This document shows positions 4,700 to 59,863 of a DNA stretch of 64,000 nt, piece after piece. A program made the translations under genes and the position numbers. A model generated the notes under the pieces. It did not search any database. It was not told where the DNA came from and worked only from the letters and a program-made list of their open reading frames with translations. Numbering within the stretch: the stretch's first letter is position 1; every line of letters starts with the position of its first letter. Origin of the DNA: Tubiluchus corallicola (Eukaryota; Animalia; Priapulida); contig JAQGDQ010000342.1 of NCBI GenBank assembly GCA_030141605.1, positions 1 through 64,000 of the forward strand. Direction: 5' to 3'.

Positions 4700-5120
4700 A
4701 ACTGAGAAAAGCAGATTGACACATTTCATAAAAGTGCTCTTAAGAAAGTTTTAAAGATAAGATGGCCATACATAATCAAAAATGAAGATGTATACACCAG
4801 AACAAAACAAACTTATTGTCAAGATTCAAAAATCAAGATCCGAAGATTAAGATGGCTAGGACATCTTCTAAGATTACCAAATGAAGCACCAGTAAGAATC
4901 GCCTTAAACAAAGCCTTAAAAACTAGCAAAAAACCACCTGGTAAACCTAAAACAACTTGGATAGCTAAGATAAATAAAGATGTTCAACAAGTTCAACCAA
5001 ACGTATCTTTAGGAGTAGAAGAACTTACGCTGTTAACTGCAGATAGAAATGGGTGGCATATCTGATAAATGTTGATACCTCAATGCCTACTACAGGTGGA
5101 ATGAGATTTTGAAGAAGAAA
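4700..5120 (+). mobile_element. Degenerate 3' end of an RTE-like LINE
   Basis: Translation includes KVLKIRWP...RRLRWLGHLLRLP...PGKPKTTW, typical of the C-terminus downstream of the RT; GAA-rich tail. Confidence 0.75.
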
Positions 5121-5181
5121 TAAGCTGAGTACATTTGCCTAGCAACCCGTTGCCCTCGTTACCATGATCTAAAAGTAACTA

Positions 5182-14842: not shown

Positions 14843-16047
<1,205 letters not shown>

Positions 16048-27479: not shown

Positions 27480-28030
27480 AGCTAATTATAGTCTGTAATT
27501 ATAAGTGGCACAAATTTTGTCTCTTTGTATCATACTTATGCAGTTATGTAAAGATGCACGCACAAAGGGATACAAATATTTAGACAATGTTATGTCTACA
27601 ACGGATCATGTAGACATATAGACAGATGTAGAGAGACGAAAGACTCATGTCCGAGTTTCTGATCGTACAAAATGCAAGATTTATTTGGAAATAAATCCCA
27701 ATTTGTATGGGAATGTATGGGAATTTGCTTCCAATGTATGGGAACACAGAGTTACCTGAGCACAAACGTATAATCATCACAAGAATAAGGGTCTCATCAC
27801 ACAATCTAGCTATAGAAACAGGTCGTTGGGTAAATGTAGCTCGTGAGCGCAGGCTGTGTCTTTGTGGAGAAATTCAGACAGAAGAGCATTTTTTGTGCGA
27901 GTGCCATGAAAATGCACTTTATAGATCACTGTACGCGTTAAATTATAGTAATATTTCAAATTTGTTTGATAGAGAATTAATGTCAATCGGAAATTTCATT
28001 TACGACTGTATGCATAGATTTTTGAATTAG
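27480..28030 (+). mobile_element. Non-LTR retrotransposon 3' fragment with a C-terminal Cys/His knuckle
   Basis: ITRIRVSSHNLAIETGRW...RERRLCLCGEIQTEEHFLCEC. Confidence 0.8.
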
Positions 28031-35334: not shown

Positions 35335-35448
35335 ATGAAGTTTCACGTTTACACTCTATCGTTCTTTACATGGTGGCTTCTGGGAACATCTGCTGAACGA
35401 AAGCAGAGTGAGAAACCGCACATTGTTTTCATATTGGCGGACGACTTC
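35335..35448 (+). CDS. ARSB: Arylsulfatase exon 1 (signal peptide and metal-binding DD)
   Basis: [38 protein letters not shown]|GTAAGT. Confidence 0.92.
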
Positions 35449-38400: not shown

Positions 38401-41400
38401 GGTTAATTGGGTCAGAACACTTCTACCACAAAGTGAGTCTATTAAGTGGCACCTACTGTATATGTCAGAGCTGACTGTTGATTTATGGGCCGAGTTATTA
38501 GAGCAAAATGGTGACTTTCAGCATACAGTTTACAAAAAGCCTTCTCATGTAGCTTTTGCAAGATTTTCTGTTCCAACTATATACACTCGACCCTCGTTAA
38601 ACCGGACCCCGTTAGCCCGGATATCGGATAAGACGGACGTCATCTGTGGTAAAGGAAACTGACCGATTGATGTTATCCGTGGTAAAGGAAACTGACCGAT
38701 TTCCATCCGAGCCGGAGCGCTAAACATAACACGGCCTATCAACTGTACAATAATTTCTGTATCCTCACAGTTAACTATTTTAAAGTAATATACAGTAATA
38801 AATCGGACAATCGGCTAAACCAGACCCCCCCCCCATTAGGACCCCTTTAAGGAGGGTTGACTGTAATCTGTTTACATAACCTTGAATAGCACCTTTGAAT
38901 CTGTTAACTGTAGATGTTTGGAGAAGCTCATTCCAGACATTTACGATTCGCTGACTAAAAAGGAATTTTCTCAGATCCAGATCAGGTCGTCTCTTATATA
39001 TCTGCATACTGTCCCAACCAAAACACACCACAACAAACCCACTTGAAGACGTGGATTAAATCAACACGAGTTCTTCCAGTGATGAGCATTTGTAATTTTA
39101 GTTGACGTAAATGCTGTCAATACGGCAAGACTCTCATTCCCCAACACCATTCACTCTTTTCTGGACAGCTTCACTCAAGAAATATCTACTACGTAGTGGG
39201 GTTCCAAACTGGACTTCCGTATTCTAGGATTGAGCGAAGTTTAGATTTGTGTAGTGACTTTACCATGCTTGTATGCCTGTTACGAAGGTCCTATGAATCA
39301 TTCCTAAAATGGCATTTGCTTTTTTAACTTTGTTTGAAACGTGTGATGCAGGTTTCAGATCAGACCAGATGTGAATGTTATGCCTCAGTCTGTTTCCTGC
39401 TGTATCTCTGTCAAAATTGTATTAAGTAAGAAATGATCCCGTTTTGGGTTTGGATGGCCCAAATGGACCAATTTGCATTTATTTTCATGAAAAAGCATTT
39501 GCCATTCTTGTGACTAGCTAAATAATTCATTTAATGATTGTCGTACAATGTCTTGATATAACTACCTACACATCCACGCAGCTTATAATCGTCAACAAAT
39601 TTCGACAACTATTTAAACAGCAATATCATTGTTATAAAGTAAGGGTCCGAGGATGGACCCCTGCATAACCCACTGCCAGCATTCAATCCATTGCAGTAAT
39701 TTTGCATGCCCGGCTATGTGAGAGGGTACAGCATATGGTCGTCTCTCTTCTCTTCCTTCGAGTTTTATTGGTGTGCCGTAGTAGTCGTGCATGGTCTTGT
39801 ATACTTCTAGAATATCATCTCTGAACCTACCGTATATTAAACTAGGTACTTTTAGTGTCAGCAGTTTGTCTTCTTACTGATTTCATAATCTCACATTATT
39901 TTTAAATGTTTTCAGATGTGCGTCTTAGTATGTTTTTCTGTATTTGTGCTGATTCTTTCAGGGTTGGAATGACGCCAGCTTTCATGGCTCAGAACAGATA
40001 CCGACACCAAACATTGATGCAATGGCTTACGATGGTATCATCCTCAACAATTACTACGTGTCTCCAATTTGCTCGCCAACTCGTAGTGCAATCTTGACAG
40101 GAAGATATCCTATACACACTGGTAATTGACTTTGGTGCAGATGCACTACACATTTAATTATTTTCGCTAATGGAATGAACCCACATTTCTTGAATTCTGA
40201 ATTCAGATTTGTCCGAAATGTATGAAATGTGAAGAATTAATTTGTTACAAAAAGTTAAAGGAAAACAGAATGATTTTTCTTATCCTACTCCATTTTGAAG
40301 TACGGTGAAAAGTATATATTTTAAGATCTATAATAAGCATTTGTGGTAATTAAATAATAGGTTAAAACGTTAATTAACAGCAAGCGAGGCTAACTAATGA
40401 TGTCATCACAACTGAACATAATTTTTAACGGCACTAACATTCCACGAGTGTGTTGCACATGTTTGCGAAGGCCATAATTGAAGTATAGTGCCACTATGCG
40501 ACATTTAATGTGATTTACAAAAACTCAGTTAATTTTAAGTTTAAAATTTAAATTTTTCGTTTACCGTTGTGCTCCTACATGAGCTTTTGAACGTGTATAG
40601 CTGAACTCCTCTGAACTGAGAAGTACGGCACCTGCTTTTTTTGTGCAACGCATTTCCGAGGTGTAAGAGCTAGTGCTCATCTGACTAAGGAATAGTGAAG
40701 TGCACGTGACCGCAGAGAACTAGCAACTCGAATGAGAAATTACGTTTCTGTGGTAATAATGCTTTCACCTAGGTCAGGGGTGTGCAAATTATCTGACTAG
40801 CCGGGCCACATTAAACATTCCCACAATTCCTATGGGCCACATGCAGTTTGGTCAAGAAACCAAGTACAGTAGGACTTAATACGATTTTTTTGCATCCGAT
40901 TTGCACACATCATTACTACTACACTCAAGAAACTATTTTAGAAGTTATTAAAATTTATATTACAAACCATATATTTCGTCATGTCCCACAGTGACATTAA
41001 GTGACAACGGTCTTGTAAGGGTTATGCCATCCGATTTAGAGGAAAAAACTACCTGCACTATCTTTGCGATATTGGCGCAGACTTTAGCTGGATTGCGTGG
41101 GCCGCACTTTCATTCACTTTGACAAATCTCTTCGCGGGCCGCACAAGATCTCACGGCGGGCCGCAGTTTGCATACCCCTGACCTAGGTCATTCTCGAAAA
41201 ATTATATGTTCCCTTTCAATATTTTATTGGGTACAAAGTTTAAGATTGGATCCAGTTTTTCTTTAAGCAGAGTAAGTAGTAAATTAACTGACACTTAGAA
41301 ATGCTGAATTAGTTGGTGAATCCAGGCCTCCCATAATCACTCAGGCAGTGTAGTCTACTGGTCAAGGCATTTGATGTTACCTAAATGTCCCTGTTTCATA

Positions 41401-44400
41401 TACAGGCTGCTTCACATTTATTTCCTTTTGGACAACTTTGTGTTTGAAATTCAATAAATGTGGATTCATTTTGCCAAATTGCAATATTTCACATCTTTGT
41501 TTAGCTTGGCACTTAGTGTTTCTAAATATAAATGAATAGTATATTTAATTTATTTATAATTATATCGAAAGCTACTTTCTTTTGTGTTCTTTTCTGCAGA
41601 AATATAGAATTAGAACAGATCGATTATCAGAAAAACAACTTTTAAGTGAACTCTTTCAGTGGGAGAACATTTGTCCGATTTTAAGCGATTTTCAATTTTT
41701 TTCATTTAAGTACGCAACTCTGGTTCACCCAACTACTCAGCAGTGGTTTCGGACCAGGAAGTAGTCTGTATTTATTACATGTGGTCAAGCAATCTGTACA
41801 ACATAGAGGGACAAATTTTCCAAATTAGCAAAAGCAGTTTAATTTGTGTAAACTCTTTGCTGTGGGAGATAAGTACTCTAGGAATGAGTTTCCATTTAGC
41901 TTTTACCACTCCCTCTTTATGCAGAGTTTTGTACCACGATGTTGAAAGTGCTGTCATTGTTATAATTTCAAAACCTGGACTCACTTTTGCTAAGGATTCT
42001 TTTAGTCTAATCTGAAATATTTTACTTATTCTAACAGTAGGAGTGAGTGTCAAATGCTCGAGCTCGAACAAGTGTTTTAGTTTGAATTTGATTTGAACTA
42101 TGAATTTATTTTCACACATCAAAATACAATATTGTACACATAAATAAACAAATAAAATGATTTGAGTAGTGTGAGGTGAGTGTATGACCATACGGTCATT
42201 AACACGCTCACCTTACTTAAATGAAAATGAAAAATATGTTAAAGTTATGCGTGCTTTTGTAGAGACTTAATGAAATTGATGTAATAAAGTAAATGATGTA
42301 ATAATAACAAGGAAACATAAGGAAAACATAATATGTAATTACGATTTTGATATAGGCTGCGATGAATGAATAATTTCATTTAAATTGATTTATACCTTTT
42401 ACTAATAAAGTAACAAAGAAGTTATACCTGAAGTTATAGTTTCGAATAATTCAGCAATTCAGCGACACTAGCATGTTCTCTATCATTAAAACATTTGAAG
42501 CAGAATGCAATCAGTTCAATTTTGCTGCGATTCCATGCGCAATTTTATTATTAGTGTTCTTACTGCAGAACTAATCTAGTAATGTGCATGATGTTTCTGA
42601 GAGCCCTTTTTATTAATAATCTGAAAATGTTTAAAACTGAAACCGGATTCGATGATGCTGAAATTCGGTTTGATTCGATTTCAAAAGTCACAGATTCAAT
42701 TCGATTAGAATTTGATTTCTGGCTGAGAATGCTCATCCTGTCCAGTTGTGTGATGTAGCGCAAAACATGTTTTTTCTCGGCTTTTTGCAATGATATTACT
42801 TACCACAACTTTTGCAACAAATTTGGAATCATATTTTCCGCATTAAAAGCTGTGCTAAAAATAGAAACTGTTCGGTTAGAAGTATATTTTTACAAAGAAG
42901 CTTTCAAAATGAAGTATAAATTTATACTAAGATTGGTGTATGACTATGTGAAAGTCATTTTTTGAAGTTGTTGTTCACTCTCTTTGTTATGATTGAGTTT
43001 AGGCACAGAAGTATGAACAAGAATAAAAAAAATCTATAATACATATTTGCACTGCACACAACAGAAAAAGTGTTTATTAAAACTACAGAGACATGAGTAG
43101 CATGTCTGCTGCACTGAACACTGAGAGTGAGAGTCTACAGAAACGTGAGTAGCACAACTGCTGCACTGACCACTGAGAGTGAGAGTCTACAGAAACATGA
43201 GTAGCACAACTGCTGCACTGACCACTGAGAGTGAGAGTCTACAGAAACGTGAGTAGCACAACTGCTGCACTGACCACTGAGAGTGAGAGTCTACAGAAAC
43301 ATGAGTAGCACAACTGCTGCACTGACCACTGAGAGTGAGAGTCTACAGAAACATGAGTAGCACAACTGCTGCACTGACCACTGAGAGTGAGAGTCTACAG
43401 AAACATGAGTAGCACAACTGCTGTACTGACCACTGAGAGTGAGAGTCTACAGAAACGTGAGTAGCACAACTGCTGCACTGACCACTGAGAGTGAGAGTCT
43501 ACAGAAACATGAGTAGCACAACTGCTGCACTGACCACTGAGAGTGAGAGTGACTAGAAAGCAAAAACAGTCAGTATATATAGGTTTAGAACTTGACCTAT
43601 GCAGACTTGTACAGGCTTCACAACAACCATTACTTTAAAATAGGGAGAGAACCAGGACAACACCAACAAAACAAACACAAAAACAAACCAAACACACCAA
43701 AAATGACAATTCCAACTCCACAGACCAGATAGCCAGGGTTGCATTTCTCAATTTCTAGTAGGCAAGTACCCTTTAAATGAGTAAAACAACACCAAATGCT
43801 GGCGTAGGCCCATGCAGGTCTAGGACAATGGTCAAGTGATAGACACTGACACTCCTTACCAGATGTAGTAGCCACGATTATCGGGAAATTGATTTTTTTA
43901 TGAACTTCAGAAAAATTCGAAGAACTTAAAAGAAGTATAGTAAAATTGATACCCAAACTATTTCACATCGAGGTGGTACAATAAATGTGTTTCTGATGTT
44001 TATTCTTATCAAAAACAGGTAGCGAGCTTTTTTCGCTAATTTCACAATGAAGCAAATTCGAGTGGTTAAGGATAGTTTGTTTTGTTTCTATGTTCTCTGA
44101 ATGTCTGCTGCCACAGCAACCTCCATCCTAGCAAAATAATTTGTCCTCCTTGTATTGACAAAGCCACAGATTTCTGTGAAAATAGTTATTACTTTTGTTC
44201 AACAGGTCAGCAAGTTAGCACCATTTTAGGCTGCTGCCCTTACGGACTGCCTCTTAATGAAACCATTATGCCGCAGTACCTGAAGAAACTTGGATACACT
44301 TCTCACATAGTGGGGAAGGTACATATGCTTATTCATGCTTATTTTTAATGTTAGATGCTTTCAGTGGTGACGTCATATCTTTAGCACAATAGTCAATGCA

Positions 44401-47400
44401 AGGGATAGTTAACCACTTTTGACTGAAATGGTATAATTTCTCTTTGAAATGGACTATCACTTTTTTTTCTTCTTTCGAAATGCTTTAGAAATGACCTCTT
44501 TATCTTACGTTGTTAGACAGTTGTCTTTTTATGCAATGAATGCTGAAGTTTTTCTTGATTTTTTATTGCACAGTTATTGTCGTAGGTGTTGGGGTAGATT
44601 TCGAATCCTCAATTCGTGTATTTCTACTAACGACCATACTGTAGTGCAGGGGTGTGCAAATTTCGGCCCGCGGGCCACTTGCGGCCCGCCGAGAGAATTT
44701 GTGCGGCCCGCGAAGAGATTTGTCAACCTAATGAAAGTGCGGCCCGGGCGATTAATTGAGTGTATCCAGCTGAAGTCCGTGCCACGATCCCAAAGATAGT
44801 GCGGGTAGTTTTTTCTACTAGATCGGATGCCATTAACCCTTACAAGATGGTTGTAGCTTAATGTCACTGTACTACACAGACTGTGTGATACACATTACTA
44901 ATATGTATTGTAATGAAATTACCACTATCTGTCCTGAAAGTAGAAATATAAATTTTAATAACTTCTAAAATAGTTTCTTGAGTGTAGTACTAATGATGTA
45001 CGCAGGTCGGATGCAAAAAAAATCGTTATTAGGCCTTTCTGTACTTGGCTCCTTGATCAAACTGCCTGTGGCCCACAGGAATTGTGAGAAAGTTTAATGT
45101 GGCCCGGCTAGTCAGATAATTTGCACACCCCTGCTGTAGTGCTTAGAATTTTTGTAGTGGAACTTAACTTATAATAATAATAATAATAATTTTGCTTAGG
45201 TTATAATCCAGAAATAGCACCTTATTTCCAACATGGTGTTCATTACTTATGTCCAAGGTGGTCAGGATTATTATTACCCGCATGTTACTTCAATAAACCT
45301 GCATGCTTGATCAAACATCCAACTGTACCATTTTTTTGTCTTTGGTATGATTCAGTTAGGAGTTGAACCTGCGACCTCGCGGGTGGCAAGTGAACACGCT
45401 ACCATTGAGCTATACTTCCAGTTCAAAGTTGTGTCTTGCTGGCAGCTGTAATAGTGTAATTAATTTCGGGTATCGTCATCAGATAAAAGATTCGGGGATG
45501 TGTGTCTTTACCCGGCCTACAACTGTTGTCTGCAAAAGCGGTCTGCAGTTCAAAATTCTTTAAATCGGACAAATGTTCTCCCCAAGTTGGGCACTCTCTA
45601 CAAAAGTCTTAGTTGGTTTGCAGCATTCCAAAAATTAGCAAAAGTACTTATTTTTAGAAAAGATGTCGAGGTTCTGGTCATACCCATAAATGTGTAATAT
45701 CTATTTTTTTAAATTTCAATTTTCTTTTTTCTCCGCACTGCGATGTTTTTGCTGCCAAATGAAGTGCATGCGTCTATAGTCTGCATATATGTCTCAACGG
45801 GGAGTAGTAAAGGTGTAACCAAACTGCTTTCCGAAAAATCATTCTCTGTTTCTAAGGCCAAATTCTGTGATTTTCAAGAAGTCTGCCTGACTCGGTTATT
45901 GTTCCTTTTAAATAAAAACAGGATGATTTTTCGTATCCTGTTCTGTCTCTAAGTGTGGTGCTTTAACACCTGTAATAATGCCGGATAATTTTTGATGATT
46001 AAGTTATAGCTTTAAAAAACTTATTTAACGGCCAATGAGTTACGATGAAGTCAGAACTCAGCATGACTGATGTAGCTGACGGAATGTCCCAAAACAAAAA
46101 CTTCTAATTCCGCATTGGCTTGCTAACGGTTATTTGTTCTGGGGAAAAAAATAAATCAAAATAGGTGTGAATATCCTTATTAAATTTAGGTGTGAAAAAT
46201 CATTACACATCATTAGATCATTACAAAATGAATTACAAAAACATTACAGATTACAACAAATAGTAAATGTAGTGTTGCAGAGTAGAAATGTTGCATCAAA
46301 TAGAAATTAAACTGTGAACTCACGTATATTGGCCAGCTCTGGCATTTAAATCTTAAAAGCATCAACAAACTGCAAGTCACAAGTCACATTTACCAAATGA
46401 TCAAATCAGGCTATATTAAGCAGAATCTAGACAGTGTGACACTTTACTGTCCTATTGCCTTCTGTGTAAAGAAAGATGAATCACCTGAGTATTAGTATAC
46501 AGTCCAAATTTATAGCAAGTAATTCATTCAAGGCCAAGGCCTAAAAGGTGGCAGCACATGACAGTATCATAATCCCCAACAACTGTGATGCACAAAAACT
46601 GGGCAAATTTATATTTAAAAATTTAAATTCTAAGATTACCACTTCGTCATCGTGTGATTTCGCCACAAATGTGTTCTACGTTAGAAACGAACTGAGTTGT
46701 GCAGTTCAGAGATGCAGGTGCTAGTGTCCATCTAACTAGCGAATGGTGAAATACTTGCAGCAGGGCACGAACATGAAATTAATTTTCTTTGGTAATAATT
46801 CCTTTGCGTTAAAAACAGTCGTGTTCTCTGTGTGTGATACATTAGATTGAGCTATAGTTTAAAATTGGGTTCTGTTTCCCATTAAATGAAAATCGACCAA
46901 TCACGAAGCTTGTCTGTTTCTCTCAGGTCAGCAAGTCGACACTATCTTAGGTTGTGAGCCCTACGGACTGCCTCTTAACGAAACAATTATGCCACAGTAC
47001 CTGAAGAAACTAGGATACGCGTCTCACATAGTGGGAAAGGTAGTTGTCCAGTTAGTTTTTCTGCTTATGTAACTTTTATGCTTTTAGGAATGCAGTGGAG
47101 AATCATAATGGGTTGTGAACCGTATGGCCTGCCTTTAAATGAGACTCTTATGCCCCAATATTTTTCCAAGCTTGGCTTTACGTCCTACATGATCGGCAAG
47201 GTATCACTTGTTGCAATGCCGTCGAGAATCGCTTTATTGTCGTGCAGATGTGGAAGATCTCGTCGGCTTGATTTCTGTGTACTGTTTGTGATTATAGCTA
47301 GCTTGTTGCTGGGAGGTTTTATTTGTTTTGGTGGAAGATTGTTACATTTCTTAGCTCAACGTGGGTTTTGTTTTTCAAAATCTCTATTTATTTATGATTA

Positions 47401-50400
47401 ACTGTACTTTTCAATGTGTGGTTTCTGTTTTTAGGCAGTTTGTCATAGTTTCTGTGTGTATGCTGTTGTGTTAGATTCGGATACAGTAAATTTCTGTGTA
47501 TACAGTAATTGTGTATTATACGCTTTATGCATGGAACCACTCTGGCACCACTTTCCCATGTGTAGGTTACTCAGACTTTGCCTTAACAATGTTGAGCTAC
47601 CCGTTTGTTATACACTTGTGTGATTAATTTTTACCCAAGAAGTTCTGCTTTGCTTTAGAAAACATGTTGCACTAAATGTGAAACTGCAAAAGAGAAGAAA
47701 ACGAGTTTTAAAGAGAACCCCGAATAACCTTTCATACAAAGTTATATTGCTTAGCATCGTGCGCACCTATTTGAAAAGCTTATGTAACTGGAAAAGAAAT
47801 TACTTAGTAATTTAAGGTATTTACTCCACCCGGTAAAATGCCACTGACTCACTGTCCCAGTGCGCATTACTGGCTCACCAAAAAGCGTGGTTTTTGGTTT
47901 TACTGAAACGAAAAATGGAAATCACTTATGTACTCAACTACTCGTAGTGTAAATGGTGTTAACATTTAAGGTTTACCTGTGTTTGATCAGCACAAATCAG
48001 ATTAGCATATGGCTTCTTTCTCCTTGATTTCCAAACATGGCTTCATTTACTAAAGTCAGCCGTTAGTAATCACCATTTTTAATTGTCTATTCGTTACAAA
48101 GATTTTTGCTTTCCACTTAGCAAAGAGCGCGTGTAAATTTGTGTTTACGTGCTGTACTTTAATTTTACCTGTTGATTGTAGCTAACACCTGTTTTACTTT
48201 ATGACCAGTGGCACCTAGGTTTTTACACGCAAGAGCACACGCCCATGTTTCGAGGCTTTCACTCGCACTATGGCTACTATTGCGGACACCAGGATTATTA
48301 CGATCATCGGGCTGAAGAGGGGGTATGTACACGCATTTCAACAGCTGTTTATTTACTGTGTTTCAGTGGCATTTGGGTTTCTTTAAGCGAGAGTACTCCC
48401 CCATGTATAGAGGTTTTGATTCGCACTATGGTTATCTGACTGGACACCAAGACTATTATGATCATAAGACCCAAGGCGGGGTACGTACCTTTTTTTGCAA
48501 ACACTAATTTCGTGTCTTATGTAACTCGATACCCGATATGTGAGACAGAAATGATGGCATTGATAGAGATTGCAGGCACTGTTGAGAATCTATCAAGAAG
48601 CACCTCAAATGAAAATGCACTATCCGTGTAGAACTGCACATGGGATGGAAGCGTGTCGCTGGTTGTTGCAAGCACTGTTGAGAATCTATTTTGAAGCGTC
48701 TCAAATGAAAATGCAGTATCTGTGTAGAACTGCACAGGGGATGGAAGCGTGTCGTTGGTTGTTGCAAGCACTGCTGAGAATCTATCATGAAGCGCCTCAA
48801 ATGAAAATGCAGTATCTGTGTAGAACTGCACAGGGGATGGAAGCTTGTTGCTGGTTTTATACTAACTGCTTATGATATTTTTATTTAATTAACTGCTTGT
48901 GATGTACTGATGTAGATGCAAACATTTCTCTGAAGTGCTTGTAGTGTCTTAGTATATAATTTGCCATATGTACTCGAAATTAATTACCCCATGTTAGTTT
49001 TTCTTCAGATAGGAAAATAATAAAATGGCTCGATCTTTCATGATTTTTGGAACGAGGAGAAGAACTAGTTTATCAACTTTTCTTGGTCCAAGTTTGTTCC
49101 ATGGTCCAAAATTTCTCATAGTAGAAAAAAATAATAAAGGATTCACGAAATTGATGGAGTAGTTTTTACTTGCTAGATAAAAAGGGACTTTTTTGTAACT
49201 TTCTTTTTACAGTTAAATGTACTGCGAGATATGCCAAGCACGCACTGGGCGGGTGTACTTGTTGTGTGGGTGGGTGTGGCAGAGTCTTAATCTAGCTTTG
49301 TATAAGTCTTTGTAGGAAATCTGAATCAATCTTGTGGGGGAGTGTGGAGGGACTGAAACCTTGATATTACATCAGAACCAACGTGCTTCCTCTGCAGAGT
49401 TCTGTGTTAATTATTTTTCAAATTTTTGTAGCGAGGGTACTGGGGCTACGACATGCGGCGTAACCTCTCCGTGGATTTTGACGCGTCAAACAAGTACACT
49501 ACCGATGTGTTTACGGAGGAGGCAATTGATGTGATAAACAATCATGATAAGGCAAAGGTAAGGGATTGTGATATTTTGCTGTGCAAATGCGCCAAACAAA
49601 TGTGTATTAGTATGAGCAGCTGCGTTTATTGGAAACCGAGTTTTGAAATGATGATCAGTTTGGGGGATTTAAAAATTTGCAGTTGTGCTTCAGTGATGAA
49701 CAAAAAATGAAGTGATCGTCACATTCCTGTGTCATTTGACTACTATGTTCTTTTACGCAAGGAAACTTTATTTATTTATTCACCATTTTTCGTGTGTGTT
49801 TTACAAACAATACAATCGCGGTAGTGAATTAGTAAACCAAAGAACACAACATTAGTCTTATTATACCTCACTCACACAACAAATGCATGAAATTTACTAG
49901 TACATAGAAATCAAACAGTAGTTATAGAAATCAAATCGTACAGTTCTACATAATTTAAAAAACTGAAATTTGAAACTCCACGTAATTTGAAAAGCTCGCT
50001 ACAAAAATTTATATCGCACGGGATACGTAGAAGTTATTCGTGTCTTACAAAGCTGCAGCTGCACATTTTCTCATCGCATTTCCACTAGAGGAATTTACGT
50101 TGGACATTTTACTCGGGAACTGGGAAATCCTGGCTGATGACTGACTTTTTGACGTCTCTGTTCCCCAGAATGCTTTGCAAATATTTAACTGACCAAACTG
50201 TAAAATTTCGTTGTATAATTTTGTTACTTCGTTTAAGATTGCTAATCGCTTGTCTTGTGAAATAGTTTTATCTGAATTGAATCACGCACTGTGCCACCGC
50301 TGTTTTTACCTTTCAGTTTCCCGTTCGCAGCTGCTGCTAATCTACAGTAAAGGTGTTGGTTTTCTATTTTCATTTTCAAAAACTTCCCCTCTTGTATAAT

Positions 50401-53400
50401 AATATTTTTATTACTTCCCACCCGTATTTATATTTGTATATATTGTAATATTGTATCTGTATATATTGTAATTTTTTTCGTAACTAATTCTAGTGGCCTA
50501 CCATAAGCCAGCTTCTTAGGTCTCTAGTGCAGAATTCATGAATTGTATCATAATTTTGTTTTAACAAAAACTGATTATCGATGCACATGTAATGTATATG
50601 TTTATTGCGAAATAAATATATTAAATCTAAAAATCTATTAAAGGGAAAGGATAATTTTTCATATCCCGCTCTGTTCTGAAGTACAGTAAAAGTATACATT
50701 TTAACACCTATAATGCCAAAGTGCTTCTGATAATTAAATAATAAGTTAAAAACTTAGTTAAGTTTAGGCAAGCCGCCCAACTAGTGACGACACTGGGCAT
50801 AATTTTTAACATTACAAACGTTTCATGACCTTGTTACAAAAGTGTTTGCAAAAGTGGAAATTGAAGTACAGTACTACTGTACAACATTCAGTATGATATT
50901 AAAAAACTTGACAACATTCAAATCTCGAGTTTACTAATGTGCTCTGATGTATGAGCTCTCAAATGTGTGCACTCCATCACAACTGAACATCTCTGAACTG
51001 AGTGGGGCACAGTACCTGTTTTTTGTGCAATGCATTTTCGAGACGCAGGCGCTAGTGTCCAACTAAAGTTCTTGTGATTGGCGAAATGCCTGTAACAGCG
51101 AAGAACTAATCTTATGAATGTTGAATTATCATTCTGTGGTAATAAATCTTTCGTGCAAGCCATTCTTGAAAAAATTGTATGTTCCTTTTCAATATTTTAT
51201 TGGATACATTGTTTGAGCTATAGTTAAATTGAGACCTGGTTTCCACCTGGTGAATGCGAAGACCATTTCCCTCCACCGTCTCTGGCTTCGGTTAACGCTG
51301 GCTAACCTTATCGTGAAAGTCATGTTTGAGGTTGTAGATGAATCACTTTGTAGAAAAAGAATAAAACACTATACTACATATCTGCACAAAACTGTTTATT
51401 AAACTACATACACATAATGTAGAACGACTGCTACACTGAACACTGAGGACAAGAGTGTCCTGCATTGATCGCTGAGAGTTAGACAGCAAGTAAAATGAGG
51501 ATCACGACTGCTGCACTGCACTGAGAGTGAGAGTGTCTAGAAAGTAAATCCAGTCAGTATATATAGGTATAGGTGATTATGCAAACTTGGCTTCACAAAA
51601 ACCATTACTGAAAAATAGGGAGAGATCCAGTGAATGCATCTAGGGGTGAGTGTAGCTAGAAAATGTAAAAGGATTAGTTCATAGATGGCAGCACCTAAAA
51701 ATATACAGTTACAATTTCCACACTTATGGTTTGATACGAAAACGTAACTGGTATTCCAGTTTTGAAAAATCTACTGCATTAATGCAGATCTACCTTGCCA
51801 TGGAATTTATGTTTTATTTTTTTGCAGCCGATGTTTCTATATTTGGCTCACCTTGCTACGCACAGTGCCAATTCTTACACGCCTCTGCAAGCTCCGCAAA
51901 AATACTTGGACAAAGTGGCTCATATCAAACACGAGAAACGGCGACTATTTGGAGGTCAGTTTGATTAACTAACAGCTGTGTGATTATTGTGTGTTGACAG
52001 TTAATTGTAGCATTAGAAACTTATAGTCACTTTCAGCATAAAATTTTTTTCACTTGTATTCATGCTGTTTCACTTTACTCTGCTTTTTAGCAAATGCAGG
52101 TACTTTTTTCTGCTTTGGTGATACAGTCAGACTCCATTATAACTCCTCTCTCAGTCTGGGTACATAGTAAAAACAAATACTTTTTAAAAAAACAATTTTA
52201 TTCAATTTTGATGTTGATAAATAATATTTTCAACACGATTTCCATCATTTTCAATGCATAATTTTATGCGTTTTACAAAATTCACGTGAATTTGATGGAA
52301 TAGATCCGCATTGCCGTCGATTTCAGCACACTGACTGGTAATGCGTTCTCTTAAATGGTTTAAATCTGTATTCTTCATCGAATACACTTTCTCTTTTAGC
52401 ACGCCCCAGAAAAAGAAGATTCTTTTTTCTTTCTGAGGAGAAAAAATAAAAACAAATAAATAAATAGTAAAATCCCCCCATGTACCCAGACTTTATGGAC
52501 ACCCTGTACAGCAAAACTTGCTTAACGTCCAAATTTTTGGAAAAACAAAATGTCTATATTTGTATAGTTATACAGTTTCTTAAAATGTGCCAAATTTGCT
52601 TAATGCCAAGTTTTCTCGAGTTCCAAAGTGGGTTTGATTGTAATTCTTACCTGAAGTTTTTCCCATTTCTGATCATACACTGCCAGTTTGTCACCATTAA
52701 AAGCTCTGAGATCCGAGTCACCAACCTGAGAGCCAAGATTTCAATGATTTCAGTAAAAAATTGATGTGTCAATTAATTCATTTAAGCTCGTTTGCTATGG
52801 AGAACTATGTTTTTCTGACTTCGTTTCATATTTGCTAAGTAATTTCACTGAACATCGCCGTGTCTTGCATTTTCTTCTCTAGGCATGGCAGTTGGCTTGG
52901 ATGAATCCGTAGGTCAGGTCGTGCAAGCATTGAACGCAAACGGGATGCTCGACAACACCATCATCGTTTTTTCTACCGATAATGGCGGACCCTCATCCGG
53001 TAAAATGTGTTCAATTTTTTCACTTTATTAACATATCAAATGGTTTCGTGTTGCTGTTGGTATTTTTGTATAAAACCTAGCCACGAGGGGGGGGGGGCAA
53101 GCCAGCCCAACTCAGTGCCGGTCCCAAGCCCGGATAAATAGGGAGGGTTAGGGTCAGGAAGGGCATCCGCCTGTAAAAACTGCGCCAAAACCTTCTATGA
53201 ATGAGTCGGTGAGACTTAAAGGTAAAGTCTGCAAAGCAGTGGTCAAACCCGCTCTAATCTATGGGCTGGAAGCAGCTTCTCTAAAGAAGACCGAAGAGAA
53301 GAAAATGGGTGTGGTGGAGATGAGGATGCTGAGATGAATGGTGGGATTAACAAGAAGAGATAAAATTAGAAATAATAATATCAGAGGAACAGTAAAAGTA

Positions 53401-56400
53401 GTGGAAGCCTCGCAAGACTGCGATGGTATGGACACCTGAAAAGAAGAGTCGGTGAAGATCATGTGGGAAGGGAAGACATAAATGAAGAGATGGTCAACAA
53501 CAGGAATGCGTGGAGAAGACTCATTCAGAACGGCAACCCCGCATAGGGAAAAGCTGGGAAGAAGAAGAAGTTGATATTTTTGTCTAAGCGTTTTGAAAAG
53601 TGAAACCTTGGTTAGGGCAGTGTTTTAGTGCACTGTGTACGGCTGTGTGAATTTTTATCCCAACATGTGCTGTTGTTTTACCATTAGTAAGGAAAAACCA
53701 AATAGATTTTCAGTTTTATGCAATGATACTGTAGCTGGAATGCATTAAGCTTGTAGGTAATGGAGTTGCTACCATTTTTGCAACTGCTCTTTTTACTTGT
53801 TTGTATTGTGTCAGGAATAAGATTTTCAGCCAGAAACTGAACATTTCTTGCATTGCAGGCTTTGATATGAATTATGCGAACAATTGGCCGCTGAGGGGAG
53901 TTAAAGACACCCTCTGGGAGGGAGGGATCCGAGGAAATGGCTTCATCTGGAGTCGTCTGTTGAAGCAGACGCATCGAGTGTCTGATCAAATGATGCACGT
54001 TACTGATTGGCTTCCTACGCTGTACCATGCTGCAGGAGGTATTTTGCACTAATTCAAGCGTTTAATTAGATTATAGAAACAATTTTACATTGTAGGCAAT
54101 TCACTTATGGAAAATTGTAACAGGTAACATTTGAAAAATGCTGGCCCTTTCTCTGTCAGCTTTCTAAACGCTAAATATTGTGCTTGAAAACATGTGAAAA
54201 CTTCTTTTTGCAGGTCTACGAAGAAACTTCTATTTAATTTTATAATTTATTAGACATAATGACGCACCTAAAGTTAACACAAATAAAAATGAACAGCAAA
54301 AGAGATGATTTGATTTTTTAAATTATGTTGATAGCCATTCATTTTTGTTCATCTTTATTTTATTTCATCCTCTGCTTCAAAAAATGCATTGTACAGCACT
54401 AAGTAAAACAAACAGTATTATTGTTTGTTGTGCATATTTTGCAAATATAAGTGCAGTTTGGCACCTTTGCAAATGGTTTTAAAGCTTTGACTTTTTTACG
54501 TGTACAGTCTAGCTGTCCCTTTTCTATAGTGTTAAATTTTGTTCCTGAAATTGTGTGTAAACATGATACTTTTATAAAAAACTGAACTCTATAGTTGTGT
54601 GACACCGTTCATTGTGAATGATTTTTGCGGGATAGTGGGTGATGCTTATAAATTAAAATGCTGAAACAGGTGAAATGTTAGCATTGAGTGCAGTCTAGTC
54701 TCGTTATCTCGCCCCTCTTTATGCCGCCAAACTCCTCTCTCGCCATAGAAAGTACCAGGACGGATTTCCTGCTTTGATATTTACCTCGTGAAGTCGCCAC
54801 CCTCGCTTCTCGCCCTCGCCACGTCATGCTAGGATGAATGCTTATGTAAACTATATTCGTTATGTCGCCAAACAGACAAACTCAGAGGTGAATCGATCAA
54901 TACATATACCGCGTGTCGATGAATATAACCGCGGTATGTAGACAATGCTGCTGTACTCGATAGACAGACATAATTAATCTAGTGTGTGTCTCACCAGGAT
55001 TAGATTAGGAGTGCTGTGGTTGGTTAATGCGCAGAGAAACTAAAGCGTCACCGATATCCTTACTGTATAACACCAAAGCTTGTGTTTGATTAAACGTCGT
55101 GTTGACTGCTTGCGTGTATCATCAATGAAACAGTTGTCTCTTCTGAATTATATCAGTCGTCAGTAACTCATTTGTGAACATTTCTAAATCTTTTGCTAAG
55201 TTTATTGCATTTAAGTGTATACTCGAAAAAGGTTTTTTAAATAAAAAAGTAACATTCTAAGATTATTTTTATGACATTTTTTCATTTCTGATTTAATGTT
55301 GATTGGTATCATAATGCGAAATATATTTTATATGTATATAGAGGAACACTATGTTAATCAACTATTATGTATATACATATAGACTAACTTCGTTATATTC
55401 CCGTTATCTCGCCATACTCGCCTCTCGCCAAAAATTTGCCCTAGACGGACAGTGGCGAGATAACGAGGCTAGACTGTATTGTTGTTGTTTTAGAAATGAT
55501 CTTTCTCTGGATTTGCTCTAATTGAAGTTAGATAGTATAATAGTTTGTTTATTTGTGGTTTATACAGCTCACTCACAGTAACTAATGCAGGGGTGTGCAA
55601 ATTATCTGACCGGCCGGGCCACATTAAACTTTCCCGCAATTCCTGTTGGTCAAGGAGCCAAGTACAGAAGGGCCTAATAATGATTTTTTTGCATCTGACC
55701 TGCGTACATCATTACTACTACACTCAAGAAACTATTTTAGAAGTTATTAAAATTTATATTACCAACCATATATTTCTACTTTCAGGACAGATAGTGGTAA
55801 TTTCATTACAATGCATATTAGTAATGTGTATCACACAGTCTGTGTAGTACCGTGACATTAAGCTACAACCGTCTTGTAAGGGTTAATGGCATCCGATCTA
55901 GTAGAAAAAACTACCCGCACTATCTTTGGTATCGTGACACGGACTTCAGCTGGATACACTCAATTAATCGCCCGGGCCGCACTTTCATTAGGTTGACAAA
56001 TCTCTTCGCGGGCCGCAATTAGCACACCCCTGAACTAATGTCATGATTATCTCAGGATAAGCATCTAGGATTTTCAATGTCGTAATAACGCCTTTAATGC
56101 AAATTCCTATGACCTAACAATCTTATTCTTACTGTAATGTATACGCTCAAATCAAAGTTGCGTTCCCATATCTATGTTAGTTTATTCTGCAAAATACAAA
56201 TTTTCTGTAGTCTACAATTACTACCTCTACCGAACTACTGAAATAAGTGCTGGAAAATAAGTGCTATAGATTATTACGTTACACTAAAAAGCTAAAATGC
56301 ATACATACATTGTTGGTCAAATATTGAGTCGAGAAAAAGCCAGAATGTCAGTAAAAGGTAGCAGTATAATTATAAGTCAAATTTTAAATGTAAGAAAGAC

Positions 56401-59219
56401 GTGTGTACATGACAAGTTCCACCTATACAATGTCAGAGTAGAAAAAGTAGTCTAGCTTGTTGAGCTACAGTCTAATATATGGTGGCTTCTAATGCATATA
56501 CTACCTTGAGAAGGGATAATGGACCAAAACATTTGCACCTGCAACACTTTCGTTTTTATCATTTTCTTATTGTCCTTATAATGCTCTACAGCCTTTTGAT
56601 ATCTAAGAAATATGTTCACTTATTTACATTGTCTTCAGGGATCGTTGTTCACATCAAAGCAAAAAACCTCATTGGCAACGACTACTCCGATCCCTGGGGA
56701 AGAAGAAAGCAGTATTACTGTAGCAGACTGCTGCCCTCCAGAAAACCTTTAACATTTGTGTTTTTAAGATGGTCATAAGTCATTTATTTCACCTTACACA
56801 TTTACAATGGTTTCATGTACAATATCTAGTGAAAGGGCCTACAATGGATATAATACAAATAAGAAATACTGCACAGGAAAAGCCTCAAACACACTCATTT
56901 ATACACGAACGTAAATGTGTTGCGGGCAATTAAAAAGCAGGGCTTGTTCGATTGTCCCACACAGTGATAGAAAAAAAAGTAATGGAGATAATCTGAAAAT
57001 TTAAAGTGAATCGTGATAAAAAAACATTAGTGCTTAAAATGGAATGATGGAATGAATGAAACTCATATATGGTGGCTAAAAACACCAGTAAGATTGGCAC
57101 CGGTAATGTTAGGGTAAAAATGACACAACTAGTTCCAAACTGGTACTGTTCTTGGCGAAGCTTGAGTCTGGTACGTTTGTTGAAAAGTTGGAAATTTCTT
57201 CCCCCGGTATGGCTTACCGTCGCCCGACTGAAAATATCGTCAAAACTGAGAATGAAATTTCCATGAAAGATGTTATATACCATAACTAAATCAGCATGTA
57301 GGCGACTTTCTTCCAGATGATATGTGGAGTTCTTACAATAGCTGTGTGAAAGTCATGTTTAAAGTTGTAGATCACTCACTTTGTAGAACAAGTATAAAAA
57401 ACTATACTACATATTTGCAGTGTTTATTAAACTACATACACATAAGTAGAATGACTGCTGCACTGAACACTGAGAATGAGAGTGTAATGCACTGAACACT
57501 GAGCGTTAGACAGTGACTAGAAATTAAATCCAGTCAGTATATATAGGTATAGGTGATAATGCAAACTTGACTTTACAAAAACCATTACTGTAAAATAGGG
57601 AGAGATCCAGTGAATGCATCGTACAATTATACTGGGGGTGAGTTTAGCTAGTAAAATGTAAAAGGATTAGTTCATAGATGGCAGCACCTAAAAAATATAC
57701 AATTACAACTTCCACAAGCTGTCAATAAGTGAGATCTGGCAGTAGAATGATTCGTTGTCAATAAGTTTTATTCCCACGACTGTTGTTTGCTGGTTGCAAC
57801 ATTCAGCGTTATCGTAAAGTCGTTAAATTTTCTGCACATTTCTATTCTATTGCATATTTTAGGAAATGTGGAAGATCTGATTGACCAGGACGGAGTCAGC
57901 ATGTGGGAATCTCTATCTCAGGACATCCCTTCTCCCCGTAAGGAGATTCTGCACAACATCGACGACGTACGACACATCGCTGCCTTGCGGTACGGCGATT
58001 ATAAGCTCAAGGTTGGACACACATACGGTGGAAGCTGGGATGGATGGTATGATTTACCACAGGTACAACAAAATATTTTATTCTCTGTTTGAAGTACAAG
58101 CCTCTAAAGGAACAGAAGGGCAAGTAGTTAGTGTTATTGAGTGCGTTTTAGCATAGCTGCCTTGAAAGCATAAGACCTGGGTTCGAGTCCAAATGGAGGT
58201 TCAAAACTTTTTCCGACTTAATAATTTAGTATCACTTTTGTTAATTTGAAAAATTTTGCACCACCGGTGGGATTTGAACCCAGGACTTCTGCTTCTGCTT
58301 TCTAATTTAATATTGCTTTTGTGAGTTTATTAGGTTGCAGTAAAATAAAGAAATTTACTTTTGTTTGGAAACTTCTATAAACTTTGTTTACAAAACTACT
58401 TAATTACAGTCGAACCTCGATAACTACCCCCCCCCCCCCCCCTTTATAATGCCAACTTTGCTTAATGCCCAAATTTTTGGCAAAACAAAATGTCTATATT
58501 TGCATTGACATGTTTGTGTTAAATCACTTTGTTATAATGGCAAACTCGCTTAACACCATCTCTTTCTGGAGTCCCAAAGCAGGCGGTATAAAGATGTTTG
58601 ACTGCACGCTCAGTGTCCATCTCTGCTGCGCCTTTACTTGGTTTAGCATAACCGAAAATGTAATTGCAAAGCTTAAACGCATAAAATTAGATCAGTGCGA
58701 AAGGTGCCTCCCGACAAATTTCAAATACAAGCAAGTGCATTCATTGATGTGCTGTTTCAGGCAAAGCGGAGAGACAGCCCCGCTCCTATACATCTTTTCC
58801 GAAGCCATCTTCACGACATCCTTCCCAATGCGACGAAACCGCCAAACTGGGAGGCCGTGGTGATCAAATGTGGACCAAAACCTGCTAATGCCAGCACCAA
58901 CTGTAAGCCAACTAAAGCGCCCTGCTTGTACAACATTCGCGAGGATCCCTGTGAGTACAACAACATAGCGGACTTTCATCCTGACATGCTGAAATTCCTC
59001 TTACAACGCCTCGCTTATTATAATGCCACCCAAGTGCCACCAGCAAACAAACCTGCCGACCCGAAGGCAAATCCCAAATATTACGGTTATATATGGACAT
59101 GGTGGCAAAGTATTGATGGCGTGTTAAATGTGGACGACGACGACGTCTTGGAATCAGACGAGCGGTTTGTCTTCAGCGAAGCAAATCGAGCTTATCGTCC
59201 GTCTCGCAATGAAGTCTGA
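35335..59219 (+). CDS. ARSB: Arylsulfatase B/I/J-like sulfatase, whole gene span (10 exon positions, about 569 aa per isoform)
   Basis: Exons join in frame with GT-AG introns: 114+160+113+114+126+127+117+180+200+459 = 1710 nt. Motifs [43 protein letters not shown] and CLYNI..DP.E. Exact orthology (ARSB vs ARSI/J) is not established. Confidence 0.95.
37443..37960 (-). mobile_element. Non-autonomous pogo/Tigger-like element with a DDE transposase C-terminal remnant
   Basis: Perfect TIRs CCGTATTTTCCCATGTATAAGAGACCC with TA TSD; encodes [11 protein letters not shown]...WVLKAW...[19 protein letters not shown]. Confidence 0.92.
38584..38863. mobile_element. Tc1/pogo-type MITE
   Basis: TA-flanked imperfect TIRs CACTCGACCCTCGTTAAA and TTTAAGGAGGGTTGACTG. 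Confidence 0.6.
38870..39900 (-). mobile_element. Decayed CR1-like LINE fragments
   Basis: The minus strand gives [17 protein letters not shown] and remnants of QGSILGP and NKCKLVHLG. Confidence 0.65.
39962..40121 (+). CDS. ARSB: Arylsulfatase exon 2 (catalytic Cys to formylglycine motif)
   Basis: [53 protein letters not shown](G); TTTCAG acceptor, GTAATT donor, ends in phase 1. Confidence 0.96.
40775..41180 (+). mobile_element. hAT-family MITE, copy 1
   Basis: TIR CAGGGGTGTGCAAA; 8-bp TSD ACCTAGGT. Confidence 0.92.
42947..43650 (-). mobile_element. LTR-like repeat related to the solo LTRs at 51312 and 57345; right end unresolved
   Basis: Starts TGTGAAAGTCA and shares the collinear blocks GTTTATTAAA, CAGTCAGTATATATAGGT and AAAATAGGGAGAGA. 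No TSD found. Confidence 0.6.
43083..43551. repeat. 52-bp minisatellite, about 9 copies, expanded inside the LTR-like repeat
   Basis: Unit CTACAGAAACRTGAGTAGCACAACTGCTGCACTGACCACTGAGAGTGAGAGT. Confidence 0.95.
44206..44318 (+). CDS. ARSB: Arylsulfatase alternative exon 3a
   Basis: 113 nt, phase 1 to 0; (G)[37 protein letters not shown]; AACAG acceptor, GTACAT donor. Confidence 0.88.
44647..45133 (-). mobile_element. hAT-family MITE, copy 2 (inverted relative to copies 1 and 3)
   Basis: Same TIRs; 8-bp TSD CTGTAGTG. Confidence 0.92.
45171..45418 (-). mobile_element. tRNA-derived SINE
   Basis: Minus-strand A box TAGCTCAATGG and B box GGTTCAACTCC, followed by a body and an (ATT)n tail. Confidence 0.65.
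46927..47039 (+). CDS. ARSB: Arylsulfatase alternative exon 3b
   Basis: 113 nt; (G)[37 protein letters not shown]; TTTCTCTCAG acceptor, GTAGTT donor. Confidence 0.9.
47088..47200 (+). CDS. ARSB: Arylsulfatase alternative exon 3c
   Basis: 113 nt; (G)[37 protein letters not shown]; CTTTTAG acceptor, GTATCA donor; lies 48 nt after 3b. Confidence 0.88.
48209..48322 (+). CDS. ARSB: Arylsulfatase alternative exon 4a
   Basis: 114 nt, phase 0-0; [38 protein letters not shown]; CTAAC branch motif at 48182, CCAG acceptor, GTATGT donor. Confidence 0.9.
48367..48480 (+). CDS. ARSB: Arylsulfatase alternative exon 4b
   Basis: 114 nt; [38 protein letters not shown]; TTTCAG acceptor, GTACGT donor; lies 44 nt after 4a. 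Confidence 0.9.
48570..48855. repeat. 96-bp tandem repeat, about 3 copies
   Basis: GCACTGYTGAGAATCTAT recurs at 48576, 48672 and 48768. Confidence 0.9.
49432..49557 (+). CDS. ARSB: Arylsulfatase exon 5
   Basis: [42 protein letters not shown]|GTAAGG. Confidence 0.92.
51312..51722 (-). mobile_element. Solo LTR, 411 bp
   Basis: CGTGAAAG...TTTCCACA ends (left TG mutated), 5-bp TSD CTTAT; TATA then AATAAA on the minus strand. Confidence 0.78.
51828..51954 (+). CDS. ARSB: Arylsulfatase exon 6
   Basis: [42 protein letters not shown](G). Confidence 0.94.
52195..52508 (-). mobile_element. Tc1/mariner transposase C-terminal remnant with one TIR, apparently nested in a MITE starting at about 52123
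   Basis: [21 protein letters not shown]...[15 protein letters not shown]; end TACAGGGTGTCCATAAAG on the minus strand. Confidence 0.7.
52883..52999 (+). CDS. ARSB: Arylsulfatase exon 7
   Basis: [38 protein letters not shown](G). Confidence 0.95.
53074..53569 (+). mobile_element. Full-length bipartite non-autonomous RTE element, third copy
   Basis: Reverse complement of 21977-22475; 18-bp TSD GTTGGTATTTTTGTATAA / GTTGATATTTTTGTCTAA with 2 mismatches. Confidence 0.9.
53859..54038 (+). CDS. ARSB: Arylsulfatase exon 8
   Basis: [59 protein letters not shown](G). Confidence 0.96.
54691..55476. mobile_element. pogo/Tigger-type MITE
   Basis: TIRs CAGTCTAGTCTCGTTATCTCGCC and GGCGAGATAACGAGGCTAGACTG; TA on the right, TG on the left. 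Confidence 0.85.
55588..56032 (+). mobile_element. hAT-family MITE, copy 3
   Basis: Same TIRs; 8-bp TSD AACTAATG. Confidence 0.92.
57100..57325 (-). mobile_element. CR1-like LINE 3' fragment
   Basis: [17 protein letters not shown]...FDDIFS...[20 protein letters not shown]. Confidence 0.6.
57345..57716 (-). mobile_element. Solo LTR, 372 bp, same family as 51312-51722
   Basis: TGTGAAAG...CTTCCACA termini with an exact 5-bp TSD AGCTG. Confidence 0.85.
57863..58062 (+). CDS. ARSB: Arylsulfatase exon 9
   Basis: [66 protein letters not shown]. Confidence 0.95.
58761..59219 (+). CDS. ARSB: Arylsulfatase exon 10 (terminal coding exon)
   Basis: GTTTCAG acceptor; AKRRDS...[23 protein letters not shown]...[16 protein letters not shown]...RPSRNEV*. 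Confidence 0.93.
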   Translation, partial: AKRRDSPAPIHLFRSHLHDILPNATKPPNWEAVVIKCGPKPANASTNCKPTKAPCLYNIREDPCEYNNIADFHPDMLKFLLQRLAYYNATQVPPANKPADPKANPKYYGYIWTWWQSIDGVLNVDDDDVLESDERFVFSEANRAYRPSRNEV

Positions 59220-59863
59220 ATGTGTCATCCGTCTCGCAATTAAGTCTGAATGTATCATCTGTCTCGCAATGAAGTCTGAATGTACTGTCCGTGTCGCAAT
59301 GAAGTCTGAATGTATCATCTGTCTTGCAATGAAGTCTGATTGTATCATCTGTCTTGCAATGAAGTCTGAATGTATTGTCCGTCTCGCAATGAAGTCTGAA
59401 TGTATCATCTGTCTCGCAATGAAGTCTGAATGTATTGTCCGTCTCGCAATGAAGTCTGAATGTGTCATCCGTCTCGCAATGAAGTCTGAATGTATCGTCC
59501 GTCTTGCAATGAAGTCTGAATGTATCATCTGTCTTGCAATGAAGTCTGAATGTATCATCTGTCTTGCAATGAAGTCTGAATGTATTGTCCGTCTCGCAAT
59601 GAAGTCTGAATGTATCATCTGTCTCGCAATGAAGTCTGAATGTATTGTCCGTCTCGCAATGAAGTCTGAATGTGTCATCCGTCTCGCAATGAAGTCTGAA
59701 TGTATCGTCCGTCTTGCAATGAAGTCTGAATGTATCATCTGTCTTGCAATGAAGTCTGAATGTATCGTCCCTCTTGCAATGAAGTCTGAATGTATCGTGC
59801 GTCTTGCAATGAAGTCTGAATGTATTGTCCGTCTCGCAATAAAGTGTGAACGTATCATCTGTT
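59191..59863. repeat. 30-bp minisatellite, about 22 copies, overlapping the stop codon
   Basis: Unit TGTATCATCTGTCTCGCAATGAAGTCTGAA and variants. Confidence 0.97.

Follow-up and report, generated by a model that had tools for sequence, protein, structure and literature searches.

Whether one gene can supply several sulfatases by choosing between alternative copies of the exons that flank its catalytic motif is the question raised by a locus of the priapulid Tubiluchus corallicola. The window, a 64-kb stretch of DNA (positions 1 to 64,000 of contig JAQGDQ010000342.1, assembly GCA_030141605.1), carries a single 10-exon sulfatase gene resembling ARSB, ARSI and ARSJ, with exons spanning 35335-59219, in which exon 3 is present in three intact tandem copies (3a, 3b and 3c) and exon 4 in two (4a and 4b). 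Probably these copies are chosen by mutually exclusive splicing to give up to six enzymes, with differing predicted substrate-contacting loops that may tune the preference for sulfated glycans, and the same exons appear to have been duplicated repeatedly in invertebrates.

Three copies of exon 3 and two of exon 4 in a sulfatase gene

All five variant exons are flanked by AG and GT splice sites, and each of the six combinations of an exon 3 with an exon 4 encodes 569 aa with a terminal stop only (Table 1). When 13 exon peptides were compared with the window by tblastn, the exon-3 and exon-4 copies were recovered at expectation (E) values of 1e-15 to 1e-20 and no paralogous copy of any other exon was found, the next best match having an E value of 0.011. 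A scan of 35000-59300 with a family hidden Markov model likewise detected exactly three copies of exon 3 and two of exon 4. Thus the claim of a preliminary description, made from the DNA alone, that the other exons are single-copy is borne out by both searches; its five sets of coordinates, lengths, phases and splice sites are all exact, the frames are open, and the split GK/WHLG motif that it reported is kept throughout, since every exon-3 copy ends in GK and every exon-4 copy starts with WHLG. In both sets the neighbouring exons are alike in sequence, length and frame and are free of stops, the properties by which clusters of mutually exclusive exons have been defined (accessible text of bioRxiv 10.1101/133215; the other papers are likewise cited for their accessible text).

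The sequence identifies the gene as an ARSB/I/J-like, formylglycine-dependent S1 sulfatase, a predicted enzyme. Its closest relative is P0001, a 571-aa protein encoded on a transcript-sized Logan contig of 1896 nt; the closest named one is an arylsulfatase B-like protein of Priapulus caudatus (71%), and the next full-length proteins stand at ~55%. A quick-method tree of 50 rows, calculated for the constitutive part of the protein from non-vertebrate sequences, joins P0001 and Priapulus with a Shimodaira-Hasegawa-like approximate likelihood ratio test (SH-aLRT) value of 100, and the remainder roughly follows animal phylogeny. The CxPxR motif is present as CSPTR at residue 75, and all ten catalytic and metal-binding residues (D36, D37, C75, R79, K129, H131, H221, D284, N285 and K306) are found, matching D53, D54, C91, R95, K145, H147, H242, D300, N301 and K318 of human ARSB (table of PMC7404199 and alignment with 1FSU). 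The preliminary description had named GKWH as the source of the catalytic Lys and His, correctly, as K129 and H131 correspond to ARSB K145 and H147, which are active-site residues (PMC6282714; PMC7404199). P0001 scores 187.6 bits against Pfam PF00884 (Sulfatase; cut-off 25), and the AlphaFold model of P0001, with a mean predicted local distance difference test (pLDDT) score of 91, has human ARSB (1FSU) as its top structural match (template modelling score 0.75/0.90; Foldseek E 2.9e-54), which is also the best sequence match (E 7e-110). Relatives are labelled ARSB-, ARSI- and ARSJ-like interchangeably in databases, a group that we take to be SulfAtlas S1_2.

Table 1. Positions of the sulfatase exons, the short spacers and the repeated element in the window
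Feature	Position	Strand	Remarks
Exon 1	35335..35448	+	Start codon; leader hydrophobic, by eye a likely signal peptide; metal-binding DD (D36, D37)
Exon 2	39962..40121	+	CSPTR formylglycine motif (C75, R79); donor phase 1
Exon 3a	44206..44318	+	113 nt; phase 1-0; catalytic Lys at end (GK); 3 aa different from 3b
Exon 3b	46927..47039	+	113 nt; phase 1-0; ends in GK; nearest to P. caudatus exon (31/37 aa)
Spacer 3b-3c	47040..47087	+	48 nt; likely below spliceable length
Exon 3c	47088..47200	+	113 nt; phase 1-0; ends in GK; diverged variant (24/37 aa vs 3b)
Exon 4a	48209..48322	+	114 nt; phase 0-0; WHLG at start, with catalytic His
Spacer 4a-4b	48323..48366	+	44 nt; likely below spliceable length
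Exon 4b	48367..48480	+	114 nt; phase 0-0; starts with WHLG; 25/38 aa vs 4a, 30/38 vs Priapulus isoform X2
Exon 5	49432..49557	+	Constitutive
Exon 6	51828..51954	+	Second catalytic His (H221)
Exon 7	52883..52999	+	DN metal ligands (D284, N285)
Exon 8	53859..54038	+	Second catalytic Lys (K306)
Exon 9	57863..58062	+	Exon of sulfatase gene
Exon 10	58761..59219	+	C-terminal domain, up to stop codon
Inverted-repeat element, copy 1	40775..41180		High-copy, short, MITE-like; depth hundreds to thousands in run X1
Inverted-repeat element, copy 2	44646..45134		Inverted relative to copy 1; 76% over 455 columns, arms 83-94%
Inverted-repeat element, copy 3	55588..56032		Orientation as copy 1

At the DNA level the copies are identical at 95/113 (3a/3b), 69/113 (3a/3c), 68/113 (3b/3c) and 80/114 (4a/4b) positions, their differences pile up at third codon positions, and the 18 base differences between 3a and 3b change just three of 37 residues. 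The ratio of non-synonymous to synonymous divergence (pN/pS) is 0.16 for 3a/3b, 0.28 for each of the other two exon-3 pairs and 0.27 for 4a/4b, synonymous divergence being far the greater in all four pairs compared (Fisher p 3e-5 to 7e-9). The exon-3 and exon-4 copies are therefore under purifying selection, and their 40-nt flanks are unalignable, with an identity of 10-15/40 that equals chance. This combination argues that the copies are neither collapsed haplotypes or other artefacts nor decayed. That haplotypes or paralogs were collapsed in tandem by the assembly, or that the extra copies are decayed leftovers, has been largely refuted and keeps a minimal probability: besides the strong selection and the unrelated flanks of copies that are only 60-84% identical, 3b-type, 3c-type, 4a-type and 4b-type exons all occur in relatives, and one contig from run X1 extends through 4a and the spacer into 4b, of which it covers 44 nt, with zero differences. 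Run X1 covers introns and repeats as DNA would, and may be the assembly's own source.

Splicing and predicted effects of the variant exons

It is proposed that each mRNA carries one exon 3 and one exon 4, which would yield as many as six enzymes that share their catalytic residues and differ in their loops, and that exclusion is achieved in two ways. In 3b/3c and 4a/4b there would be too little room between donor and branch point for both copies to be spliced. Candidate branch points lie 12-21 nt upstream of the acceptors, and every other intron in the gene is at least 698 nt long; the distance from donor to branch point is below 50 nt in both pairs because the entire spacers measure 48 and 44 nt, and a distance of <50 bp served as the steric criterion in a survey of human mutually exclusive exons (bioRxiv 10.1101/133215). 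Exclusion within these two pairs is thus likely to be steric. Exon 3a, which sits 2.6 kb from 3b, is likely excluded from 3b and 3c by frameshift: in silico, two or three exon-3 copies together, or none, lead to a stop by codon 126-136, and a transcript joining 3a to 3b or 3c would be cleared by nonsense-mediated decay. Of docking and selector pairings of the Dscam type, just weak short inverted repeats are found near the copies.

Sequences from relatives contain one exon of each kind. P0001 has exons 2, 3c, 4a and 5 joined directly; its exon-3 segment agrees with 3c at 33/37 residues and with 3a and 3b at 25/37, and its exon-4 segment with 4a at 38/38 and 4b at 25/38. In Priapulus, 11 residues separate isoforms X1 and X2, every one of them in the exon-4 segment; the exon 3 of both is 3b-like, matching 3b at 31/37 positions and 3c at 20/37. 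The forms represented are 3c with 4a (the relative's contig P0001) and the 3b-like exon with both exon-4 forms (the Priapulus models) only. Exons 3a and 3b cluster with the Priapulus exon at an SH-aLRT of 99, to the exclusion of 3c, and the 3a/3b versus 3c split therefore likely predates both species. A support value of 99.9 for a group of 3c, P0001 and Solemya was not used, as it is probably a label displaced by re-rooting.

Several observations weigh against mutually exclusive use. Splice junctions of the variant exons were not seen in T. corallicola itself, where run X2, taken by guess to be RNA, covers no variant exon; its single relevant contig matches 53983-54039 and departs where exon 8 ends, consistent with splicing. 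Exons 3a, 3b and 4b were not found in transcript-derived proteins of the window species and of the species of P0001, and short priapulid fragments carrying any of the three do not occur among the best 120 of 340 matches. Introns of ~45-50 nt are spliced in nematodes, a point against steric exclusion. Co-inclusion of 4a and 4b and skipping of exon 4 both stay in frame, so that it is for exon 4 that the short spacer weighs most. Among annotations, Mercenaria models X1 and X2 contain both exon-4 copies, and Branchiostoma X1-X3 contain two exon-3 copies by way of a 25-residue retained spacer.

The retained frame and the Mercenaria models are what would be expected if the copies were independent cassette exons, co-included or skipped and not strictly exclusive. 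This explanation is nevertheless highly improbable: the spacer is 44 nt in the window and 36 nt in a related gene described below (L044), two copies would double a core strand and the catalytic His, and a single WH[LQM]G is present in all 26 full-length Logan proteins checked. Mutually exclusive use, as the preliminary description had envisaged, is well supported by the selection on the copies, spacer lengths, frame logic and the one-of-each transcripts and isoforms in relatives; its figure of six enzymes is an upper bound.

With respect to what the variants change, the equivalents of ARSB G144, K145, W146, H147 and G149 are invariant within every gene examined, and differences are located in the opening third of exon 3 and, in exon 4, at the equivalents of 150-155, 159 and 169-173. 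Since no variant alters the Lys or the His, it is the surrounding loops that change and not the catalytic pair. The exon-3 loop, past the exon-2/3 junction, aligns with S1_19B F103, the residue by which this carrageenan sulfatase positions the sugar in its solved complex 6PSM (PMC6923384), and also with Y108 of GALNS, placed by counting from C79, K140 and H142; GALNS Y108 is an active-site residue, and Q111 and C165 are docking contacts (PMC5926073). This alignment with sugar-contacting loops of solved sulfatases makes it likely that the pocket is lined by the swapped loops where it faces the sugar. The preliminary description had spoken of swappable pocket-proximal loops; loops do vary around an invariant Lys and His, as it held, and their placement at the pocket is a matter of alignment. 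The variable loops (equivalents of human ARSB 109-120 and 150-155/169-173) would shape the part of the pocket that binds the sugar and tune the preference among sulfated glycans, and by analogy with coq-2 (PMC7434440) such substrate tuning would be the most likely purpose of the variants, an interpretation that is favoured slightly.

Three points temper it: the loops are placed by alignment, 3a and 3b are separated by only three residues, and a hot-spot test against family-wide variability gave P values of 0.04-0.05 for the single sites (the ARSB-112 and -115 equivalents) and 0.32 for all sites together, with exon 4 not significant either. The equivalents of ARSB-112 and -115 differ in seven of the eight closest variant pairs, but the concentration of differences is no greater than family variability predicts and was dropped as evidence for tuning. 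A search for ARSB literature naming pocket residues at 112, 115, 169 or 172 found none.

Duplication of the same exons in other animals

An isoform survey covered 20 clusters, picked partly by 'isoform' names, from which 18 species groups were compared; the isoforms outside the window are annotations, with exon bounds inferred from where differences end. Isoforms differing solely in the exon-3 and/or exon-4 segment were found in 10 of the 18 groups, four groups are variant-free (Ptychodera, Aethina, Cryptotermes and Mizuhopecten) and three look like paralogs, as which the Lingula and Haliotis 'isoforms', differing outside both exons, were treated. Variants affect the exon-4 segment in Priapulus and exon 3 in Limulus, Tachypleus and Larinioides (15-17 residues apart) and in Pecten and Ylistrum (two residues apart), and, outside the 18 groups, an exon-3 pair is found in Trichonephila clavipes. 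All four 2 x 2 combinations occur among Mercenaria models; in Branchiostoma lanceolatum, also additional to the 18 groups, exon 3 and exon 4 have three forms each (3 x 3), in many of the nine combinations. Two Macrobrachium species and Eurytemora have three linked 3+4 forms, a Procambarus model has the order 3-4-3-4, and two-copy single-gene models were detected in Petrolisthes, Tigriopus, Polyplax, Mya and Mactra (154 proteins scanned). In P0050, P0061 and P0096 (Petrolisthes, Tigriopus and Procambarus) the duplicated unit appears to be a block of exons 3 and 4 (3-4-3-4), giving linked and not combinatorial variants in pancrustaceans. The scallop isoform pairs P0085/P0167 and P0165/P0162 differ just at the ARSB-112 and -115 equivalents, a difference conserved between Ylistrum and Pecten, and constitute a minimal natural test of pocket function.

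A pattern scan of metagenome contigs, which supplies genomic evidence beyond annotations, returned 64 loci, 62 of which are unrelated to sulfatases; the other two (L001 and L044) represent the same gene (99.8%), an intron-containing ARSB-like gene. In L044 it occupies 5489-305 on the minus strand, shows <=58% identity to any stored protein and belongs to an unplaced animal on a long branch. Its exon 4 is in tandem (3167-3048 and 3011-2898, each in frame, separated by a 36-nt spacer), and its exon 3 is single, with the 5′ intron seven codons earlier than in the window gene. The short spacer was selected by the query, because the scan pattern fixed the spacing of the copies.

Variants are shared by members of a class: informative sites favour sharing by 8 to 0 between Mercenaria and Mya and by 4 to 0 and 4 to 1 between Macrobrachium and Procambarus. 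In quartets spanning phyla or subphyla, grouping by gene is seen for exon-3 variants in nine of 10 (one tie) and for exon-4 variants in three of six (two ties, one across), and no grouping is favoured in quartets of window 4a/4b with Priapulus X1/X2 or of Limulus with spider variants. The two adjacent clusters come in three architectures, namely exon 3 only, 3 x 4 combinatorial and linked 3+4 blocks. Repeated duplication is favoured, because quartets group by gene and the architectures differ, and the comparison suggests that the same two exons have been duplicated again and again in the invertebrate gene lineage; an ancient origin with turnover or conversion may also fit, given the 33-37 residues compared. 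At the ARSB-169 equivalent, Tyr alternates with Leu in the window, Mercenaria and Branchiostoma alike. It is conceivable, at somewhat under even chances, that the exons flanking the catalytic K/xH form a hot spot where duplication took place independently in five or more lineages, namely priapulids, chelicerates, pancrustaceans, bivalves and amphioxus, besides the unplaced animal. Splicing would then build a partly combinatorial set of glycan sulfatases whose substrate pockets differ, with parallel changes such as Tyr/Leu at ARSB-169 in three phyla. If so, a reader of the sulfation code would have been diversified through splicing instead of gene number.

Splicing could be exclusive and the variants could still tune something other than substrate, such as pH optimum, stability, formylglycine conversion or trafficking, or few coupled combinations could be made, leaving the 3 x 2 repertoire unrealised. 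Consistent with this are the linkage of exon-3 and exon-4 variants in all decapod and copepod cases and the 3-4-3-4 order noted above, the near identity of 3a and 3b and the outcome of the hot-spot test. It is unlikely, however, in view of the full sets of combinations in Mercenaria and many of those in Branchiostoma, the order 3a-3b-3c-4a-4b in the window, which imposes no linkage, and the alignment of the variable stretches with sugar-contacting loops.

Repeats in the window and comparison with known systems

Outside the sulfatase gene, open reading frames of >=110 aa in the window are repeats and retro-element fragments only. Among the long ones in 1-35000 no other recognisable gene was found, that region containing microsatellites and fragments of long interspersed nuclear elements or reverse transcriptase (4706-5691, 15600-15913 and 27695-28030). 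The element resembling a miniature inverted-repeat transposable element (MITE) in Table 1 is ~400-480 nt long with terminal inverted repeats, and its inverted pairs enclose 3a and, separately, the region from 3b to exon 8; speculatively, an inverted pair might loop out 3a. A 52-nt tandem repeat (~9 copies, 43083-43560) lies in the intron upstream of 3a and a 96-nt one (three copies, 48570-48857) in the intron directly downstream of 4b. A ~30-nt tandem repeat (59195-59860) starts in the last codons of exon 10, extends ~650 nt into the 3′ region and apparently provides the stop codon.

To our knowledge, animal sulfatases are regarded as having one specificity per gene, and the specificity determinants of ARSB, ARSI and ARSJ are poorly mapped. 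Isoform sets identical save for two pocket loops would provide natural swaps for locating such determinants, clam, shrimp, horseshoe crab and amphioxus being tractable. In invertebrates that handle sulfated glycans, the diversity of sulfatases would exceed what gene counts show, and a hydrolase is added to the short list of genes with the same exons re-duplicated across phyla.

The preliminary description knew of no such arrangement in arylsulfatases. This holds in the full-text literature searched (subscription journals and the 2013 Drosophila survey lying outside its scope): no paper was found that describes duplicated or mutually exclusive exons in any sulfatase or arylsulfatase, and the one promising match concerned COQ2. 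The arrangement is, on the other hand, not peculiar to Tubiluchus; it is present, without comment, in public annotations from several phyla. Sulfatases go unmentioned in the accessible main text of PMC9741552, PMC7954323 and bioRxiv 10.1101/133215 and in the text supplements of PMC7954323 (large tables and bioRxiv supplements being outside the scope), nor was a hydrolase found in which two adjacent clusters split a catalytic K/xH motif. The splicing mechanism is of a known kind, and two consecutive clusters splitting the catalytic motif of a sulfatase, recurrent across invertebrate phyla, appear to be undescribed though visible in annotations.

Reportedly, OGDH 4a/4b, PKM and Dscam are examples of tandem duplicated exon substitution. 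Substitutions of this type resemble the proposed sulfatase case in that the homologous exons are equally long, the residues that vary lie near functional sites, exclusion is steric or by frameshift and orthologues show convergent duplication (PMC9741552; PMC7954323; bioRxiv 10.1101/133215). Human ARSB differs in having eight exons, with His111-Gly167 and an unsplit GKWH within exon 2 (PMC6282714), and is therefore not swappable in such a manner; the introns of the window gene at the ARSB G108 and K145 equivalents do not match this structure. The glucosinolate sulfatases GSS1-3 of Plutella xylostella are likewise arylsulfatases, from an insect, with a diversified substrate range, but they were diversified by whole-gene duplication, and the review states that alternative splicing has not been reported in them (PMC10375594). 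The closest parallel in kind is offered by coq-2 exons 6a/6e, which are equal-length, tandem, mutually exclusive exons that remodel an enzyme core (PMC7434440; PMC12403961) and are found in several phyla of invertebrates, whether by descent from an ancestor or by independent origin being undecided (PMC7434440). In coq-2 a single two-exon cluster brings about a demonstrated substrate switch, whereas the sulfatase, known from sequence alone, has two consecutive clusters that are potentially combinatorial.

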